Part shown: positions 4,390-34,557 of the stretch, piece by piece | Numbering within the stretch: position 1 is the stretch's first letter | How the letters are laid out: the number at the start of each line of letters is the position of its first letter | Program-made: the position numbers and the translations under genes | Notes under the pieces: generated by a model | The model's input: the letters and a program-made list of their open reading frames with translations, nothing else | Told to the model about the DNA's origin: nothing | The model's database searches: none | Origin: an uncultured bacterium | Lineage (GTDB): Bacteria > Chlamydiota > Chlamydiia > Chlamydiales > SM23-39 | Assembly (NCBI GenBank): GCA_963716985.1 | Contig: OY970323.1 | Coordinates: 384,001 to 448,000, forward strand | DNA length: 64,000 bases | Direction of reading: 5' to 3'

Positions 4390-5019
4390 TTACGACCTCT
4401 TTCCCTTGAACGATTTGAATGCGGACTCTAAAGCATTCCATTGATTTTCAAGCTGGGCATTGATGATGCCGGCTTCTGTTTCAATGATACACCCGCCTTT
4501 GAGCACATCGCTTCTTTCAAGAATGGAAAGGCTTTCCACTTCTTTTAAGATTTCTTTAATTCTGGGTTTTTCTTTTTCTAGGATCGCAAGATCTTCCTTA
4601 TTTGCATAGATTTTAATCTTTCTATGTTCTGTTACGGGTTTTAATGACTGGATGACAATGTCCACGATCCTTTCGGGCATCAGCTTGATCTCATTGCCTA
4701 AGATTTTTTTTGCCGCTTTCAGTGCGATCGGAAGGACCTGGTTTTGAAATTCGATTTTGAGGTTTTTGATCTCTTGATCGAGTTGCAGCAGGTGGGCATT
4801 GAAGCGAGACAGCCCCTCGTCAAAACCCTCCTTGGCCTTTCTTTCTTTGAGCTCAAGGCATTCCTTTTCTACTTCTTCTCGATACTTTTGTGCATCTTCT
4901 TGCGCCATTTTCAAGATTTCTTCGGCCGACAAAAGGGTAGAGCATGCGGACGCAGGGATGATGCGATCTTCAGCAGAGAGATGAATTTCCTCTTTCGAAA
5001 AGAGAGTAAAGAACTTCAT
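4390..5019 (-). CDS. sctL: Type III secretion stator SctL (FliH/HrpE family)
   Basis: AKEGFDEG coiled coil; GGCIIETEAGIINAQLE C-terminal motif; position in the cluster. Confidence 0.92.
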   Translation of the reverse strand: MKFFTLFSKEEIHLSAEDRIIPASACSTLLSAEEILKMAQEDAQKYREEVEKECLELKERKAKEGFDEGLSRFNAHLLQLDQEIKNLKIEFQNQVLPIALKAAKKILGNEIKLMPERIVDIVIQSLKPVTEHRKIKIYANKEDLAILEKEKPRIKEILKEVESLSILERSDVLKGGCIIETEAGIINAQLENQWNALESAFKSFKGKRS

Positions 5020-5379
5020 TAAATTGACATCGCGGAAACCGACAGCCTTGTGCTGTCGGAGGAAGCGATGCTCCTTTGTTAATTGTTAAATATAGGGGTC
5101 TTGCGACCCCTATTAATGCCCGTAAGGGCCTTGTAACGGAACCTTTCGGTTCTCTCCCCTCGGCAATGTTACATAGCGGCCCTATACTCTAATCCGTTTC
5201 GTGCTTACCCTATCGCTTGTCTGCAACTAGAGTTTCGAGAGGGCAGAACTGAGGAAGCATTCTGCCGTCGGTCTTTTTAGCCTCTATATAACGTAGTTCT
5301 CTTGCGAGAACTGAGCCTGGTCAACCAGGGCTTGTTAGTCTTCTTTCAAGCCTCTCCCTTTATGGGAGGGGTGATTGAC
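5020..5379 (-). mobile_element. Non-autonomous IS200/IS605-superfamily element consisting of a HEARO/omegaRNA-like scaffold with no iscB or tnpA
   Basis: Minus strand begins GTCAATCACCCCTCCCATAAAGGGAGAGGCTTG; contains GTTGACCAGGCTCAG, CTACGTT, TGCTTCCTCAGT and CATTGCCGAGGGGAGA; ends in hairpin TTCCTCCGACAGC-ACAAG-GCTGTCGGTTTCC before ATGAAG; removal restores an sctK/sctL ATGA overlap. Confidence 0.85.
5080..5379 (-). ncRNA. HEARO/omegaRNA-like structured RNA scaffold
   Basis: Recognisable HEARO blocks and several tetraloop hairpins (e.g. GTTCTC-GCAA-GAGAAC, GAACC-GAAA-GGTTC, GGGGTC-GCAA-GACCCC); 3' boundary approximate. Confidence 0.78.
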
Positions 5380-6245
5380 GAGCCGTCTTCTTGGTTAGTG
5401 TTGATCAGAGACAAAATCTCTTCAATATCGGCGACAATCTTGGAGGCAATTTTCGGTTCTTCTTTTTTTGTGGCGTTGCGAAACAAAAGATTGCCTCGTC
5501 CAATATCCAACCGGTGGCAAATATACCATATCAGATGCACGTGTTGAATGGAAAGAGCTTTTGCAAGGCGAAGAAGCCCCCGTTTGTGGAGCATGAGGCG
5601 CAGCGAGTCTTTCGTTTCGTCCCATTTTTCTAAACCGAGCGGAAGCGAGGTAAAAGACTCTTTAATAGAGCGCTTAGACTTTAAAAATTTGGCCTCGGCT
5701 TTTGTAAGCGAGCCTTCAATTTTTTTGAGGGTGGTTGTGGCGAGTATTTTTTTCATTTCGATCGCCAAATCATAAAGAGCCAGAAGATCGATGAGCTGCA
5801 AGAGCCTGTTTTTGCTAAAGGTAGAAAGGATGTTCAGAGAAGAGGGGGGAAGGTAGTTTTTCGGGAGTATCTCCTTTTCCTCTCCCAAAAGGCTGGAGAG
5901 GAGAATGTGTCGAAAGAATCGCTTGGCCGGCTTTGAGAGTTTTTCAATTCCCGGATGTATGTGAAGAAGAGGGGCAATTTTTTCCACGTAGGATCCGGGC
6001 AGGCTTAAAAGGAAAAGCGAGGCCTCTTTGTTCGAATAACTTTTTAGAGTTGGCAAAAACCAAGAATAGTGTGTTTCCAAAATCAGGGAATCGAAAACAA
6101 AGTCTTGGGGGTCGAAAGAGAGAGGGGAAATCTCGATTTTTTCCAGATCTTCTAAATCCATTTCTGGAAGAAACGCGGCGAGCTCATTTTTTCTCCCTGA
6201 GCGTTCCAACAGTACTTTGAGAAGGGTGAGTGAAGAGAGGTTCAT
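5346..6245 (-). CDS. Chlamydial T3SS protein between sctJ and sctL (SctK-position protein); last 10 codons supplied by the inserted element
   Basis: HYSWFLP and CHRLDIGRG motifs; synteny sctJ-X-sctL. Confidence 0.8.
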   Translation of the reverse strand: MNLSSLTLLKVLLERSGRKNELAAFLPEMDLEDLEKIEISPLSFDPQDFVFDSLILETHYSWFLPTLKSYSNKEASLFLLSLPGSYVEKIAPLLHIHPGIEKLSKPAKRFFRHILLSSLLGEEKEILPKNYLPPSSLNILSTFSKNRLLQLIDLLALYDLAIEMKKILATTTLKKIEGSLTKAEAKFLKSKRSIKESFTSLPLGLEKWDETKDSLRLMLHKRGLLRLAKALSIQHVHLIWYICHRLDIGRGNLLFRNATKKEEPKIASKIVADIEEILSLINTNQEDGSSITPPIKGEA

Positions 6246-6258
6246 CGAGGAGCTCTCT

Positions 6259-7116
6259 TTAAGGTTTATTTTCTTCTTTCTCTTTTCTTTCCTTTTGCAG
6301 GTAGGGATAAAACTTGTAAATGAGCCACCCTGTCATAAGGCCGAAGAGAAGGATCAAGCAAAGAAGAAGGGTAAAGAAAAAACGGAAGCGAGCAGAGGAG
6401 TCTTTGGTCATCACAATCGACCAGATGCTCACGTAATCATCTTTTTTATGGCCGAGGATTTTATTCCCTTTGAACTGAATGTCGGAGAAGCGCGAGCGAT
6501 CCGATATAACGGAAACATCTTCGAAATCAAGCCCTTCAATACTTCCGGCAACGAGTCGTTTGATTTTGGATTCGAGATGGTTGTTGGGATCGTCAAGCAC
6601 GCCTTGATGTTTGATATAGACGGCGGCTTTGATTTTAGGCTTTACCGCTCCCGGCAGAAGTCCTTCCGTGGAGGCAAAGGAGATCCGCACGTCGGCATCG
6701 AGAACGCCATCGATTTTACGGATGATGTTTTTTAGCTCCTCTTCCTGTCCTGCTTGATAGCGGATGGTTTCTTCCTTGTCGGAGGTCATGAGTCCTTGTT
6801 TGGCGAAAAGCTCTAAGAGAGTCGCTCCCTTTCTACGAGGAAGGCCATACTGGTTGAGGATGGCCATGGCCCCATTCATCTGCTTTTCTTCGACGGTGAT
6901 ATTCCATAGGTTGGCAGGCGTCCCTCCGGCGCCGGCGCTTTCTGCGGCCTTCATCTTCTGGGCATCGATTCCTTTAGATCCTAAAAAGACGATGATTTCA
7001 TTAGCTTCCCTCTCGTCAATATTATTTACGATCGGTTCATGTTTCTGACATCCGCCGAGAAATAAAGAAAAAAACAAGATAAGAACAAAAGAAAGGCGCA
7101 GAGAAAAGGAGTTCAT
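6259..7116 (-). CDS. sctJ: Type III secretion inner-membrane ring lipoprotein SctJ
   Basis: Lipobox LFLGGC; EREANEI, GLP and IDGVLDADVRI motifs; C-terminal TM. Confidence 0.95.
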   Translation of the reverse strand: MNSFSLRLSFVLILFFSLFLGGCQKHEPIVNNIDEREANEIIVFLGSKGIDAQKMKAAESAGAGGTPANLWNITVEEKQMNGAMAILNQYGLPRRKGATLLELFAKQGLMTSDKEETIRYQAGQEEELKNIIRKIDGVLDADVRISFASTEGLLPGAVKPKIKAAVYIKHQGVLDDPNNHLESKIKRLVAGSIEGLDFEDVSVISDRSRFSDIQFKGNKILGHKKDDYVSIWSIVMTKDSSARFRFFFTLLLCLILLFGLMTGWLIYKFYPYLQKERKEKEENKP

Positions 7117-30558: not shown

Positions 30559-31986
30559 ATGAAAAAAAATACCAAAAAATATCCAAAAACTCAACCTGCA
30601 TCTGCATCTAATTTTAGATTGGCTCCCATAAATCCGTGTGTTGCCGGTATAGACATTGGAGCCAGCTCTGTATTCATTTGTATCGGTTTTCCCGATGGGC
30701 ACCAAGAAATACGCGAGTATTTAACCTTCACAGAGGATCTCAAGAACATGCTGTCCTGGATCCAACAGAATGAGATCCGGAGCGTAGCAATGGAATCTAC
30801 CGGAGTATACTGGATTCCGGTTTACGATATCTTGGCTCAGGCAGGGATAGATGTCATATTGGTAAATGCATATTACCTCAAAACAGTCCCGGGTAGAAAA
30901 ACCGATGTAAAAGATTGCCAATGGATCCAACAATTACACGCCTACGGATTACTTAGAGGATCATTTCGTCCCGATGATGAAGGAGTCATACTTCGCGGAT
31001 ATGTGAGGCAGAGAAGCCGTTTATTTGAATTGGCCTCTCAGCAGGTGCAATTGATGCACAAAGCCCTCGTGCAAATGAATCTCCAACTCAATCACGTAGT
31101 GAGTGACATTACGGGCGCTACAGGCATGAATATTATACGAGCGATTGTCTCTGGAGAACGATCTCCCTTAGTCTTAGCAAAATATCGAGATCCTCGATGC
31201 AAAAAAGATGAAAAAGAAATTGCAAAAGCTCTCGATGGCAACTATCGAGAGGAACATCTACTGGCGCTGAAACACGCTCTTGCAGCTTATGATTTTTTCC
31301 ATCAACAGGCTTTGGAGTGCGAAGAGGCTATAGAGCAAGTACTGAAGAAATGGGAAGAAGCGCAACCGAAAAAAAATATGCCGGCTCCAAGATCGACTCC
31401 TGCAGAACATTCAAGTAAAAATGGGCGAGGAACACAGAAAAAGACGAAATACAACCTCAGTCCATATCACTTTGAAGCAGAAGGTTCTCTCGAAAGAATT
31501 CTTCACGTCAACTTGACTGACATTCCCGGACTGGACGTGAATGGGATTATAAAAATTCTAGGAGAGATTGGCATGGATATGTCCAAATGGCCGAGTGCGA
31601 AACATTTCGCTTCTTGGCTTGGGCTTTGTCCCGGCAACAAGATTTCCGGTGGCAAGATTTTGAGCGGCAAGACCAAGCCAACTGCCAACAGGGCAGCACA
31701 AGCATTACGCTTAGCAGCCAATGCCCTTTACCGCTCCAAAACAGCCCTTGGCGCCTATTTTCGTAGGATGCGAGCAAGACTCGGTGCTCCAAAAGCGATC
31801 ACAGCGGCAGCACATAAACTTGCAAAAATTCTGTATACGATGCTGAAAGAGCGCAAAAATTTTACAGAAGTTGGACAAGCTGCATACGAACAGGCATATA
31901 AAGAAAGACAGCTATTGTCATTGCAGAAACGAGCACGAGAACTAGGATATGGGCTAGTGCTCTGTCACCCTTTAATTTTAGGATAA
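30559..31986 (+). CDS. IS110-family recombinase/transposase, full length; C-terminus altered by a MITE (native stop at 32066)
   Basis: GIDIG, MESTGVYW, KTDVKD (DEDD) and WLGLCP..ISGGK (serine domain), A.AHKL. Confidence 0.93.
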   Translation: MKKNTKKYPKTQPASASNFRLAPINPCVAGIDIGASSVFICIGFPDGHQEIREYLTFTEDLKNMLSWIQQNEIRSVAMESTGVYWIPVYDILAQAGIDVILVNAYYLKTVPGRKTDVKDCQWIQQLHAYGLLRGSFRPDDEGVILRGYVRQRSRLFELASQQVQLMHKALVQMNLQLNHVVSDITGATGMNIIRAIVSGERSPLVLAKYRDPRCKKDEKEIAKALDGNYREEHLLALKHALAAYDFFHQQALECEEAIEQVLKKWEEAQPKKNMPAPRSTPAEHSSKNGRGTQKKTKYNLSPYHFEAEGSLERILHVNLTDIPGLDVNGIIKILGEIGMDMSKWPSAKHFASWLGLCPGNKISGGKILSGKTKPTANRAAQALRLAANALYRSKTALGAYFRRMRARLGAPKAITAAAHKLAKILYTMLKERKNFTEVGQAAYEQAYKERQLLSLQKRARELGYGLVLCHPLILG

Positions 31987-32051
31987 ATTGACTTGAGTTT
32001 ATGCCGACCGTTGCCAAACTTATAATCCTAAATTTTAACTATGACAGAGCA
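31958..32051. mobile_element. 94-bp MITE, copy 1, CTAG duplication
   Basis: TGCTCTGTCA...TGACAGAGCA flanked by CTAG; nearly identical to 32790-32883. Confidence 0.9.
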
Positions 32052-32462
32052 CTAGTAGCTTGCTAAAAACAAAAATCAACTAAAACTTACAGGTAATCAA
32101 GCAAACTTTCAACGACTTTAAAGGCCGGAAATGCATTGGTGCTAAACGCCCGATTATGAGCTTGGTCTGCATCATCACCGATAACATCATTGGTGAGATC
32201 GTTTGTCGTAAGACCGACGATCATCCCGTTTTAGAAGAGTGCGCAGTATAGAGTGATGAGCAAGTTTAAAGAAAGTTTGTGTAACCATGGACAGGAGACC
32301 CACATGTGAACTTATTTAGAAGCAGTTGCCAATACCACAACATTTTTCTAAAAGCTCTTGCATAAATCCCTCCTGTTAAGATTGGAAGGAATATATTACT
32401 ATTTGTTGATCTTGGATCCAAGAGGGCTTTTCATGGATTATTGTGAGGCGACGAAGACGCAC

Positions 32463-32726: not shown

Positions 32727-32789
32727 AACACTCCTTTGGTTAAGAAAAACCAGAGTGCCATGACGAAGGAAAACAAAAAAGATGGCTAG

Positions 32790-32883
32790 TGCTCTGTCAC
32801 CCTCTAATTTTAGGATAAATTGACTTGAGTTTATGCCGACCGTTGCCAAACTTATAATCCTAAATTTTAACTATGACAGAGCA
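32790..32883. mobile_element. 94-bp MITE, copy 2, CTAG duplication, inserted in the IS66 end
   Basis: Same IRs and body as 31958-32051. Confidence 0.9.
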
Positions 32884-34557
32884 CTAGATTAGACGATTAC
32901 TTTAATTCTTAACGGAAACCAATAGTTGGTATATTCCAAAAATATTCGCTGCACAGCACACTGTGTCTTTTTATCGATATTGCGCTTAGCCTCATCCCCC
33001 AACAGTTCGGAAAACACTTCAGGAAACGTTATATCTATAAATTGGTCCTGTGTTACCATGATCGCTAACGCAACGGCAGCTTCAGGGCGAAAAGCAAAAA
33101 AAGCACTATATTCTGGTTCATCTACTTTCGCTTTCAAGTCATTAGCCAGTTGAAGAAATTTTTTGTCATCTACTTTTGGCTCCAAGCCTTTAACCCGTTG
33201 TTGAAGATAGACTTTAGCCCGTTGAAGAAAGTCGTCAACGCGTTTAAGAATTTGTCTCGCCACGTTCAAAACAACATCACAATCAACCTCCAGTTTCTCA
33301 CGTTTAATGTATTCCGCAGCTTTATAACGAACTAAATCCAAAATTACTGACACAACAAAATCTCCTCGTTATTAATATATTATTATAACAAAAAACTATT
33401 TAATTAACAATAAACTATTAGTTTGTTTTTTAATATAAATAAACAATTTTGGTATACAAGTTTTTTATTATCAATATGATGCATTCTGGACAAATCCAGG
33501 CAACAGATCTAAATTGCTTATTTACATTCACTTATTAAGAAGTTTGTGTGTTGATTTTATGGCCAATATATTAAGATCCTAATCTTGTATTATTTCTGAA
33601 TATTAATAATTCAAGTTGTTGATGACGATTGATTTACGCAACAATTCTATCAACCGTCAGGTAAATGCCTGATCCTTTCCCACCTCTTGGAAACGATCAC
33701 GAAAGTGGACCCACCTTCGATCACATGAGTGATACCACTTGGAGATTCCATTTTTGGATCCCCCCCCCTCGATCACTTGAGTGATACCATTTGGAGATTT
33801 CATTTTCCGATCCCCGCCTTCGATCATGAAGGTGAGACCACCATAAAATTGACAATGCTCTTAATTTATACCTAATTTTGGGTTATTTCTTAATCTATTT
33901 TCGCCACCTTTTTGGGTTTCACATAAGATCTTTTTTTGAACTCTTCTAAACGATAACTTTTCCCCTCAATCACGACCTGTATACCTTTGTGTACTAAACG
34001 GTCTAAAGATGCCATGGCTAGAATAGGATTTGGAAAACAGCTTCCCCATTCATTGAAGTCTCGATTACTTGTGATAATCAAAGAACTTTTTTCATATTTC
34101 TCGGAGATGATTTTGTAAAGCTCACTTTGCTCCGTTTCATTGAAGGATTCTAAGCAAAAATCATCTAAAATGATAAGGGGTGTCTTGATGATGTTTCCCA
34201 TTCTTTTTTGATAACTGCCATCCCCCTTTCCATATTGAAGCCAATCAAAAAGTTGTCTCATTCCAAAAAAAATCACTTCAAAACCACGTCGACAGGCTTC
34301 GTATCCAAGTGACTGAGCTAAATGGCTTTTCCCAACACCACTAGGACCTAAAATAAAGATGTTCTGCTTTTGCAAAACAAAGTCACATCCTCCTAACTCT
34401 TTTAAAAAAGCAGCCTGGATTTTTTCATTAAAGCTAAAGTCAAATGTTTCCAGTGTCTTGCTTGGATCTAGGTGACTCTTGGCCAAGCGTTTAATTAATT
34501 GGTTATTTAGCCTGTTATCTACCTCATCAGTTATCAACATGTCTAAAAATCCATAGT

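Follow-up and report, generated by a model that had tools for sequence, protein, structure and literature searches.

Between a SctK-like gene and sctL, the type III secretion operon of an uncultured chlamydia-like bacterium (GTDB lineage Bacteria; Chlamydiota; Chlamydiia; Chlamydiales; SM23-39) carries an insert of 360 nucleotides (nt). This insert is very probably a gene-less ISC element, i.e., an IscB-type member of the IS200/IS605 transposons that was inserted by the family's own route and has most likely ended as a stranded passenger. The stretch of DNA that was analysed, hereafter the window, comprises 64,000 nt (NCBI GenBank assembly GCA_963716985.1, contig OY970323.1, positions 384,001 to 448,000 of the forward strand) of a host genome that consists of a single contig of 2,067,739 bases. 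Positions are those of the window unless they carry the prefix C1 or G000:C1, which stands for this contig.

The explanation that we favour has several steps. The iscB gene would have been deleted except for its last ~10 codons, the complete guide-RNA (omegaRNA) scaffold and the terminal hairpin module being kept. Insertion would have occurred without target duplication directly 5' of an ATGA(A), most probably where the stop codon of the SctK-like gene and the start codon of sctL overlapped in ATGA. Neither gene would thereby have been broken: in place of its lost TGA the upstream gene has a frame that runs on for 10 codons into the element, and the ATG of sctL would be formed by the first three bases of the target motif. 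The insertion was presumably tolerated because the landing site and the end sequences leave both frames and the downstream start usable. Since element and operon have the same orientation, the omegaRNA of the element would be expected from read-through transcription. By analogy with other IscB systems we infer that the 5' flank of the element is the guide, so that the last ~16 nt of the SctK-like gene (16 nt being the guide length that we assume) would play this role. With neither a cognate IscB nor an intact cognate TnpA evident, the element would most likely be stranded at this site.

The insert and its relatives in the genome

The insert runs on the minus strand from position 5379 down to 5020, in the same sense as the operon, and its junctions (slashes) read ...GAAGACGGCTC / GTCAATCACCCC ... 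GCGATGTCAATTTA / ATGAAG. It stands directly 5' of ATGAA, the motif that holds the start codon of sctL (ATG at 5019-5017), and no direct repeat of the kind left by target duplication is found around it (...GGCTC/element/ATGAAG). When positions 4500-6000 were searched with Infernal against all Rfam models, a single strong match was obtained, to HEARO (114.1 bits against a gathering score of 83, E 2e-24). A HEARO search of the whole genome recovered the same match. The 5' hairpin of the insert, CCCTCCC-ATAAA-GGGAGAGG, falls within the first stem of the model. The iscB gene is absent at this locus, where 129 nt separate the scaffold from sctL.

The genome holds 11 HEARO matches, 9 of them above the cut-off. 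Two (C1:166141 and C1:1818584) lie directly upstream of intact IscB genes of 442 amino acids (aa), whose products match Pfam RRXRR with 237 and 234 bits and NCBIfam guided_IscB with 437.7 bits (cut-off 175). These two genes span C1:166410-167738 and C1:1818858-1820186. Both limits of the element recur among these copies. At the 5' side, a terminal GTCA word marks the limit of flank similarity in 9 of the 11 matches (8 GTCA, 1 GCCA); in c1003298 the terminal word begins one base before the start of the match, and the weak match c1222537 is without a terminal word. At the 3' side, 15 element ends in the genome, solo ends included, finish in a sequence resembling ...GTCAA(n)TAGG, followed by ATGA[AT]; the window copy finishes ...GTCAATTTA/ATGAAG.

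The gene-less copies share one order of parts: the scaffold, ~45 nt, a GC hairpin with a GCAA loop, AAGGAGCAGCGCTTCCTCCCACCCCTAAAGGG... and the terminal hairpin. In the full-length copies the sequence beginning AAGGAGCAGCGCTTCCTCCCACCCCTAAAGGG... codes for the last residues of IscB, KRSSASSHP, and the stop, and AAGGAGCAGC..., which follows the deletion junction, corresponds to the same last IscB codons (...KRSSASSHP*). The GC hairpin at the junction, GGGGTC-GCAA-GACCCC, is common to six of the seven gene-less copies that have a 3' end (c1222537 is without it) and is absent from the full-length elements. By this alignment the gene-less copies are internal-deletion derivatives in which the two transposon ends and the entire guide-RNA scaffold survive. 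Since the same deletion derivative occurs at several loci, it would have moved after the loss of iscB. The two full-length copies are 96.5% identical, the gene-less copies are 74-95% identical to their nearest copy, and no two copies are identical. The copies of a group II intron in the same genome are, by contrast, 99.6-100% identical. Because all ISC copies have diverged while the intron copies are nearly identical, the ISC family looks old and currently immobile in this genome.

The scaffold of the window copy belongs to another lineage than the two IscB-linked omegaRNAs of the genome. It is 82.5% identical to the gene-less copy C1:35378 and 74.6% identical to the IscB-linked omegaRNA of a relative, G013 (genus g13), but with those two its identity is only 60.6-61.5%. 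Pairing is well kept: out of 65 consensus pairs of three B-lineage sequences, 64 are canonical in the window copy, and in comparison with its sister c35378 nine pairs are changed on both sides, three on one side and two are broken.

At the corresponding position, the relatives examined have no insert. SctL was searched for in 40 relatives and the best 29 loci were kept for the junction count. The SctK-like homologue abuts sctL in 29/29, and the 360-nt insert is present in none. The largest unaligned gap between the two genes is 122 nt, in an alignment that stopped 49 residues before the C-terminus. The aligned sctL start is ATGA at 18 of these loci, GTGAAA and ATGGGA at two, while nine align only from residue 2. 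HEARO itself is present in 6 of the 40 relatives. It was not found in G001, a genome of the same genus (SctL 80% identical) in which the junction reads ...AAAGAAGAGTGAT/ATGAAG. A scan of metagenomes with SctL added 80 loci, the best of them 59% identical, from which six without a detectable SctK-like match were left out. The remaining 74/74 are contiguous SctK-like/sctL pairs, with raw gaps of at most 82 nt and extrapolated gaps of -34 to +13 nt. Exact 20-nt words from the 3' end of the SctK-like gene gave no match in a collection of genome contigs, so no close strain was available there. Since no empty site of a close strain was found, we only infer the exact junction before insertion, GGCTC + ATGAAG, with the overlap TCA-TGA/ATG. 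The element is covered by contigs of at least 99% identity that come from runs on soil and peat, of which one (X4 record 17, 5290-5478, no differences) bridges the 5' junction with the SctK-like gene; the records that bridge the 3' junction have fewer than 31 letters on one side.

An earlier note on this DNA had described an HEARO/omegaRNA cassette without an open reading frame (ORF), inserted without target duplication at a site that relatives should show empty, with further copies, iscB and tnpA to be looked for elsewhere in the genome. The full-length covariance match, the alignment of the copies, the two plain flanks, the empty loci of both surveys and the finding of two intact iscB genes and of tnpA genes all agree with this description. 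The same holds for the tail SITPPIKGEA that SctK was said to gain from the insert, the ORF 5346-6245 ending ...NQEDGS + SITPPIKGEA. As regards insertion exactly in a stop/start overlap, the placement at the SctK-like/sctL junction directly 5' of ATGAA stands, and the ATGA overlap itself is deduced from the flanks. The background on which the note relied (no duplication, a guide from the 5' flank, an ATGAA-type motif) is in print (Kapitonov et al., PMC4810608; Meers et al., bioRxiv 10.1101/2023.03.14.532601).

Landing sites and the 3' terminal module

ISC transposons are described as having 5'-GTCA termini, as inserting at N/ATGA without duplication and as being mostly non-autonomous (Kapitonov et al. 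2016, PMC4810608). The transposon-adjacent motif (TAM) given for GstIscB is TTCAT, which on the opposite strand reads ATGAA (Meers et al., bioRxiv 10.1101/2023.03.14.532601). In the genome studied here, an ORF with a minimum of 80 codons begins at 13 of the 15 ATGAA sites that follow element ends, as against 23% of all 7,252 ATGAA sites, and many of these ORFs have signal-peptide-like starts. On a crude gene call the ATGAA sites divide into 268 first start codons, 923 intergenic sites and 6,061 sites inside genes. Only 268 of the 1,191 non-disruptive sites are thus starts, and avoidance of gene disruption alone would not yield 13/15. In 4 of 10 copies, including both that bear IscB, a long upstream ORF with 104-435 open codons continues into the element, and two bases of its last codon lie outside the boundary, as insertion into an ATGA overlap predicts. 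This frame stops after 6 codons in subfamily A, and an extra A in the window copy extends it to 10 residues. The gene-less copy c1919348 (G000:C1:1919208-1919348) ends ...GATAGAATGATG before an apparent tRNA gene, not before a protein start.

The same tendency is seen in three relatives (G008, G013 and G029), where 7 of 10 element ends abut an ATGA that opens at least 75 codons. In G008 a related end abuts the ATGAAT start of an SctK-like homologue (38% identity, E 1e-54) that is followed by sctL. This site (L144, G008:C152:438-2033) lies on the minus strand of a contig that ends within the element. It appears, therefore, that the type III secretion operon was hit independently in another genus, one gene further upstream. 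Because the target motif of the family coincides with start codons and with stop/start overlaps, the placement in a secretion operon is best read as a general habit of the family, not as something specific to secretion.

It is possible, although we hold the idea only tentatively, that the chlamydial ISC family is built to sit harmlessly on the start codons and ATGA overlaps of essential operons. Its 5' end would supply a nearby stop for the upstream frame, and a conserved helix in the 3' module would bring an inherited AAGGAG to ~8 nt from the host ATG, so that the downstream gene, here sctL, would still be translated. In return, the omegaRNA would be transcribed from an essential operon, the target ATGAA itself reading Met-Lys/Asn. 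Two genera would each have acquired an element in the secretion operon on separate occasions, the host studied here at the start of sctL and G008 at that of sctK. The landing counts in both sets of genomes, the small share of starts among non-disruptive sites, the early closure of the overlap frame in subfamily A and the two hits on one operon all speak for such an adaptation. Much of the enrichment may, however, be due to survivorship, other insertions having been lost from a compact genome.

The 3' module adds evidence that likewise points both ways. In 23 of 24 aligned ends (alignment A1) the outer helix is immediately preceded on its 5' side by a core that reads GGAG, GAGG or AGGA; behind the sole end without such a Shine-Dalgarno (SD)-like core, c1230768, there is only a 28-codon ORF. 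The outer helix surrounds the inner hairpin, ends ~8 nt before the sctL ATG and reads CATCGC/GCGATG in the window copy against CAGCGC/GCGCTG in most copies. Across the alignment 97% of its cells are paired and 5 of its 6 pairs are changed on both sides, values reached by none of 500 shuffles, and versions slid along the alignment are only 31-41% paired. The inner hairpin has 82% of its cells paired. Read in the mRNA sense, the outer helix has twice as many G-U cells as unpaired ones (8 against 4), which hints weakly that folding takes place on this strand. The genome does use SD motifs, which peak 8 to 14 nt before starts. However, only about a quarter of the crude starts show an SD core (~25% against a background of 7-11%), so that such a motif is perhaps not needed, and SD-independent initiation would also seem to be common in this genome. 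The AAGGAG is inherited from the last IscB codons and could have been kept for coding, while the distance between helix and end is fixed by the transposon end and could serve recognition by TnpA on DNA. RNA folding of 4990-5110 (minus strand) gives z -5.65, with a minimum-energy structure in which AAGGAG pairs with early sctL codons and a centroid structure in which it is free. The 3' module may act as a 'portable ribosome-binding site', but we would sooner doubt this than assume it.

A terminator scan called none on the minus strand inside the element, the GC hairpin 5095-5110 included. A weak sigma-70-like pair (TTAATA-16 nt-TATATT, 5089-5116, minus strand) overlaps this hairpin just upstream of sctL; by eye it is not common to the aligned copies, and no conclusion is based on it.

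Partner enzymes and the remaining alternatives

The earlier note had gone further and proposed a selfish lock or a reversible switch. An IscB acting in trans with the window omegaRNA would cut chromosomes free of the element, and a TnpA acting in trans would excise the element precisely. The element would then either hold the secretion operon in an addictive lock or regulate sctL coupling reversibly. The mechanism published for IscB, in which TnpA excises the element, a flank-derived guide directs the cut at the donor joint and one TAM serves both enzymes, would allow this (Meers et al., bioRxiv 10.1101/2023.03.14.532601), as would the presence in the genome of IscB genes and tnpA reading frames, two of each being intact, the structurally intact scaffold and an orientation that permits read-through. 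The proposal was nevertheless not borne out and we consider it very improbable, given the divergent omegaRNA, the lack of an evident cognate tnpA and a placement that is generic for the family.

On the nuclease side, the omegaRNAs linked to the resident IscBs are only ~61% identical to that of the window, and the nearest IscB-linked relative, that of G013, is linked to an IscB that shares 47% identity with those of this genome. Because of these two distances, the enzyme belonging to the RNA lineage of the window would not be in this genome.

On the transposase side, the genome has three tnpA loci, two of the IS200 type and one of the IS605 type. The two IS200-type units are identical over 2,537 bp (G000:C1:755320-757856 and 1969993-1972529). 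Both units end in hairpins that do not resemble the ISC ones. A group II intron interrupts their tnpA right behind the ATG, so that TnpA synthesis would depend on splicing. The intron matches Rfam Intron_gpII, carries an ORF of 452 aa and is present in five copies in the genome. The IS605-type unit (G000:C1:54950-56650) consists of a frameshifted tnpA and a divergent tnpB with an open frame of 401 aa. The hairpin that follows this tnpA, CCACCAGC-ACGAG-GCTGGTGG, resembles the inner 3' hairpin of the window element, with paired changes. The frameshifted gene was considered as a former partner, but the element boundary and the target motif could not be placed consistently. Recent movement has left no sign in the form of identical element copies, and no joint that skips the element was seen in the contigs of four DNA runs, in which rare excision cannot show.

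The remaining alternative, that the 360 nt are original to the operon, as an intergenic regulatory RNA or a spacer, or else an assembly artefact, draws on the position inside the operon, the sense orientation and the strong fold, but has next to no probability left and was rejected both as ancestral spacer and as artefact, since none of the 103 homologous loci examined contains the insert, other loci of the genome carry this same element with both of its ends, the HEARO model is matched in full, and contigs from public runs cover the element, one of them bridging the 5' junction.

Several observations weigh against the stranded passenger that we prefer, or against details of how it arrived. 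An empty-site allele in a close strain was looked for and not found, the SctL of the nearest genome being only 80% identical, and in that genome, G001, stop and start are one base apart and do not overlap. The covering contigs may include the genome's own source sample, so their independence is uncertain. The scaffold is undecayed, its differences from the sister copy being mostly compensated, as would be expected either of an RNA that still functions or of a relic of recent date. Sequence by itself leaves room for use of the window omegaRNA by a resident IscB, or for cross-mobilisation by the IS200-type TnpA. Finally, that the element is transcribed, where its omegaRNA begins and ends, and that sctL is translated are predictions, ~0.06 of the sampled words being present in the RNA runs.

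Neighbouring genes and known systems

The coordinates of the element, of its parts and of the genes around it are given in the table. The sctL product aligns over its full length to its relatives, and homologues of sctR, sctS and sctT (Pfam FliP, Bac_export_3 and Bac_export_1) follow downstream. The SctK-like gene lies between sctJ and sctL, an order that is kept in relatives. Its product has no Pfam or NCBIfam family at E <= 0.01, and a PDB sequence search with a profile of 19 homologues returned no chain at E <= 1. An AlphaFold model built with the same 19 homologues has a mean pLDDT of 87.3 and a pTM of 0.84; residues 286-299 are below 50, so that the added tail is modelled as disordered. 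Foldseek found only weak FliG matches (E 0.05-0.5) and none at E <= 0.001. Compared with 48,161 chains, the model is closest to PscK (6uie_B; Z 9.6, root-mean-square deviation 4.1, 162 of 179 residues aligned), followed by FliG chains at Z 5.2-7.5, where structural Z values under ~13 in helical proteins may reflect only a common arrangement. 'SctK-like' appears a fair label for this gene of 299 aa, given its position between sctJ and sctL and the structural match, but it is unproven because such Z values are common for helical proteins. The sequence of best matches, PscK (SctK) first and FliG domains next, fits a common origin of SctK and FliG at a syntenic position.

Table. Features of the inserted element and of the adjoining type III secretion genes (window positions)
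Feature	Position	Strand	Basis
Whole non-autonomous ISC (IscB-type IS200/IS605) element, without a protein-coding gene of its own (probable)	5020..5379	-	boundaries from alignment of the genome's copies
omegaRNA scaffold	5149..5379	-	Rfam HEARO (RF02033), model 1-211 of 211
Predicted guide-encoding flank, last 16 nt of the original SctK-like frame	5380..5395	-	published IscB omegaRNA layout
GC hairpin at the deletion junction	5095..5110	-	alignment of copies against the full-length tail
3' terminal module	5020..5076	-	alignment of ends and RNA fold
AAGGAG of the 3' module	5076-5071	-	
Outer helix CATCGC/GCGATG of the 3' module	5070-5065 with 5033-5028	-	
Inner imperfect hairpin of the 3' module, CCGACAGC-ACAAG-GCTGTCGG	5059-5039	-	
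ATGAA, target/transposon-adjacent motif and sctL start codon	5015..5019	-	ATGA[AT] after 15 element ends in the genome; published TAM/target
SctK-like gene, 299 aa	5346..6245	-	last 10 codons and stop (5346-5378) from the element
sctL, 209 aa, intact	4390..5019	-	NCBIfam NF004968 (HrpE/YscL family), 233.1 bits against 220; Pfam FliH
sctJ, 285 aa, upstream gene of the operon	6259..7116	-	TIGR02544, 183.5 bits against 161.95; Pfam YscJ_FliF

Elsewhere in the window, 31953-32069 and 32785-32893 (G000:C1:415953-416069 and 416785-416893) are two copies of a repeat of ~102-117 nt. The genome has ~30 copies of it in all, which are 94-100% identical and in places arranged in tandem. Repeats of 124 nt that match in both orientations form another family elsewhere in the genome.

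The element type, its target and the logic of its guide are already published, and the window element is a new instance of them. Among described elements, ISC1-1_MA of Microcystis aeruginosa is like the window family in its 5'-GTCA, its insertion 5' of ATGA, its subterminal imperfect hairpins, the frequent lack of tnpA, from which mobilisation in trans is expected, and an IscB with RuvC and HNH in full-length copies (Kapitonov, Makarova and Koonin 2016, PMC4810608). The window copy differs in having lost iscB altogether and in its chlamydia-like host; the strings 'chlamyd' and 'start codon' do not occur in the text of that paper (PMC4810608), whereas 'start codon' is present a single time in Meers et al. 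ISGst5 of Geobacillus stearothermophilus and the gene-less PATEs resemble the window element in taking the guide from the 5' flank and in the TAM TTCAT. PATEs are described there as elements that 'often encode omegaRNAs' and for which a nuclease would have to be supplied in trans, and omegaRNA output is said to depend on read-through from an upstream gene in the same orientation, with a bias for such a gene (Meers et al., bioRxiv 10.1101/2023.03.14.532601). For ISGst5 a single TnpA has been shown to excise and IscB to cut donor joints, whereas for the lineage of the window element no cognate TnpA or IscB is evident. A search of full-text literature found no paper that links IscB/HEARO elements to landing on start codons. 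As in other members of HEARO RF02033, the match of the window copy is full-length, above the cut-off and one of several in its genome. The HEARO name ties the RNA to an ORF for an HNH endonuclease, which the window copy does not have. The original description of HEARO reportedly already mentioned copies without an ORF.

For the 3' module, parallels exist in the ribosome-binding site of phage T4 gene 38, which is bridged by a hairpin ('split'), and in the left-end hairpins of IS200, which control the translation of tnpA. As in these cases, a stem-loop between an SD-like motif and a start codon would set the effective spacing. Unlike in these cases, such a role is hypothetical for the window module, whose helix may serve transposase recognition.

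The window would thus offer a clean natural example of an RNA-guided transposon inside an essential operon of an obligate intracellular-type bacterium, with the operon left unbroken. It also documents IscB/omegaRNA elements, together with two intact nucleases, in chlamydia-like genomes. If the 3' module does restore translation of the gene on which it lands, this would be a new adaptation among IS200/IS605 elements and a compact natural design for 'insulated' insertion.

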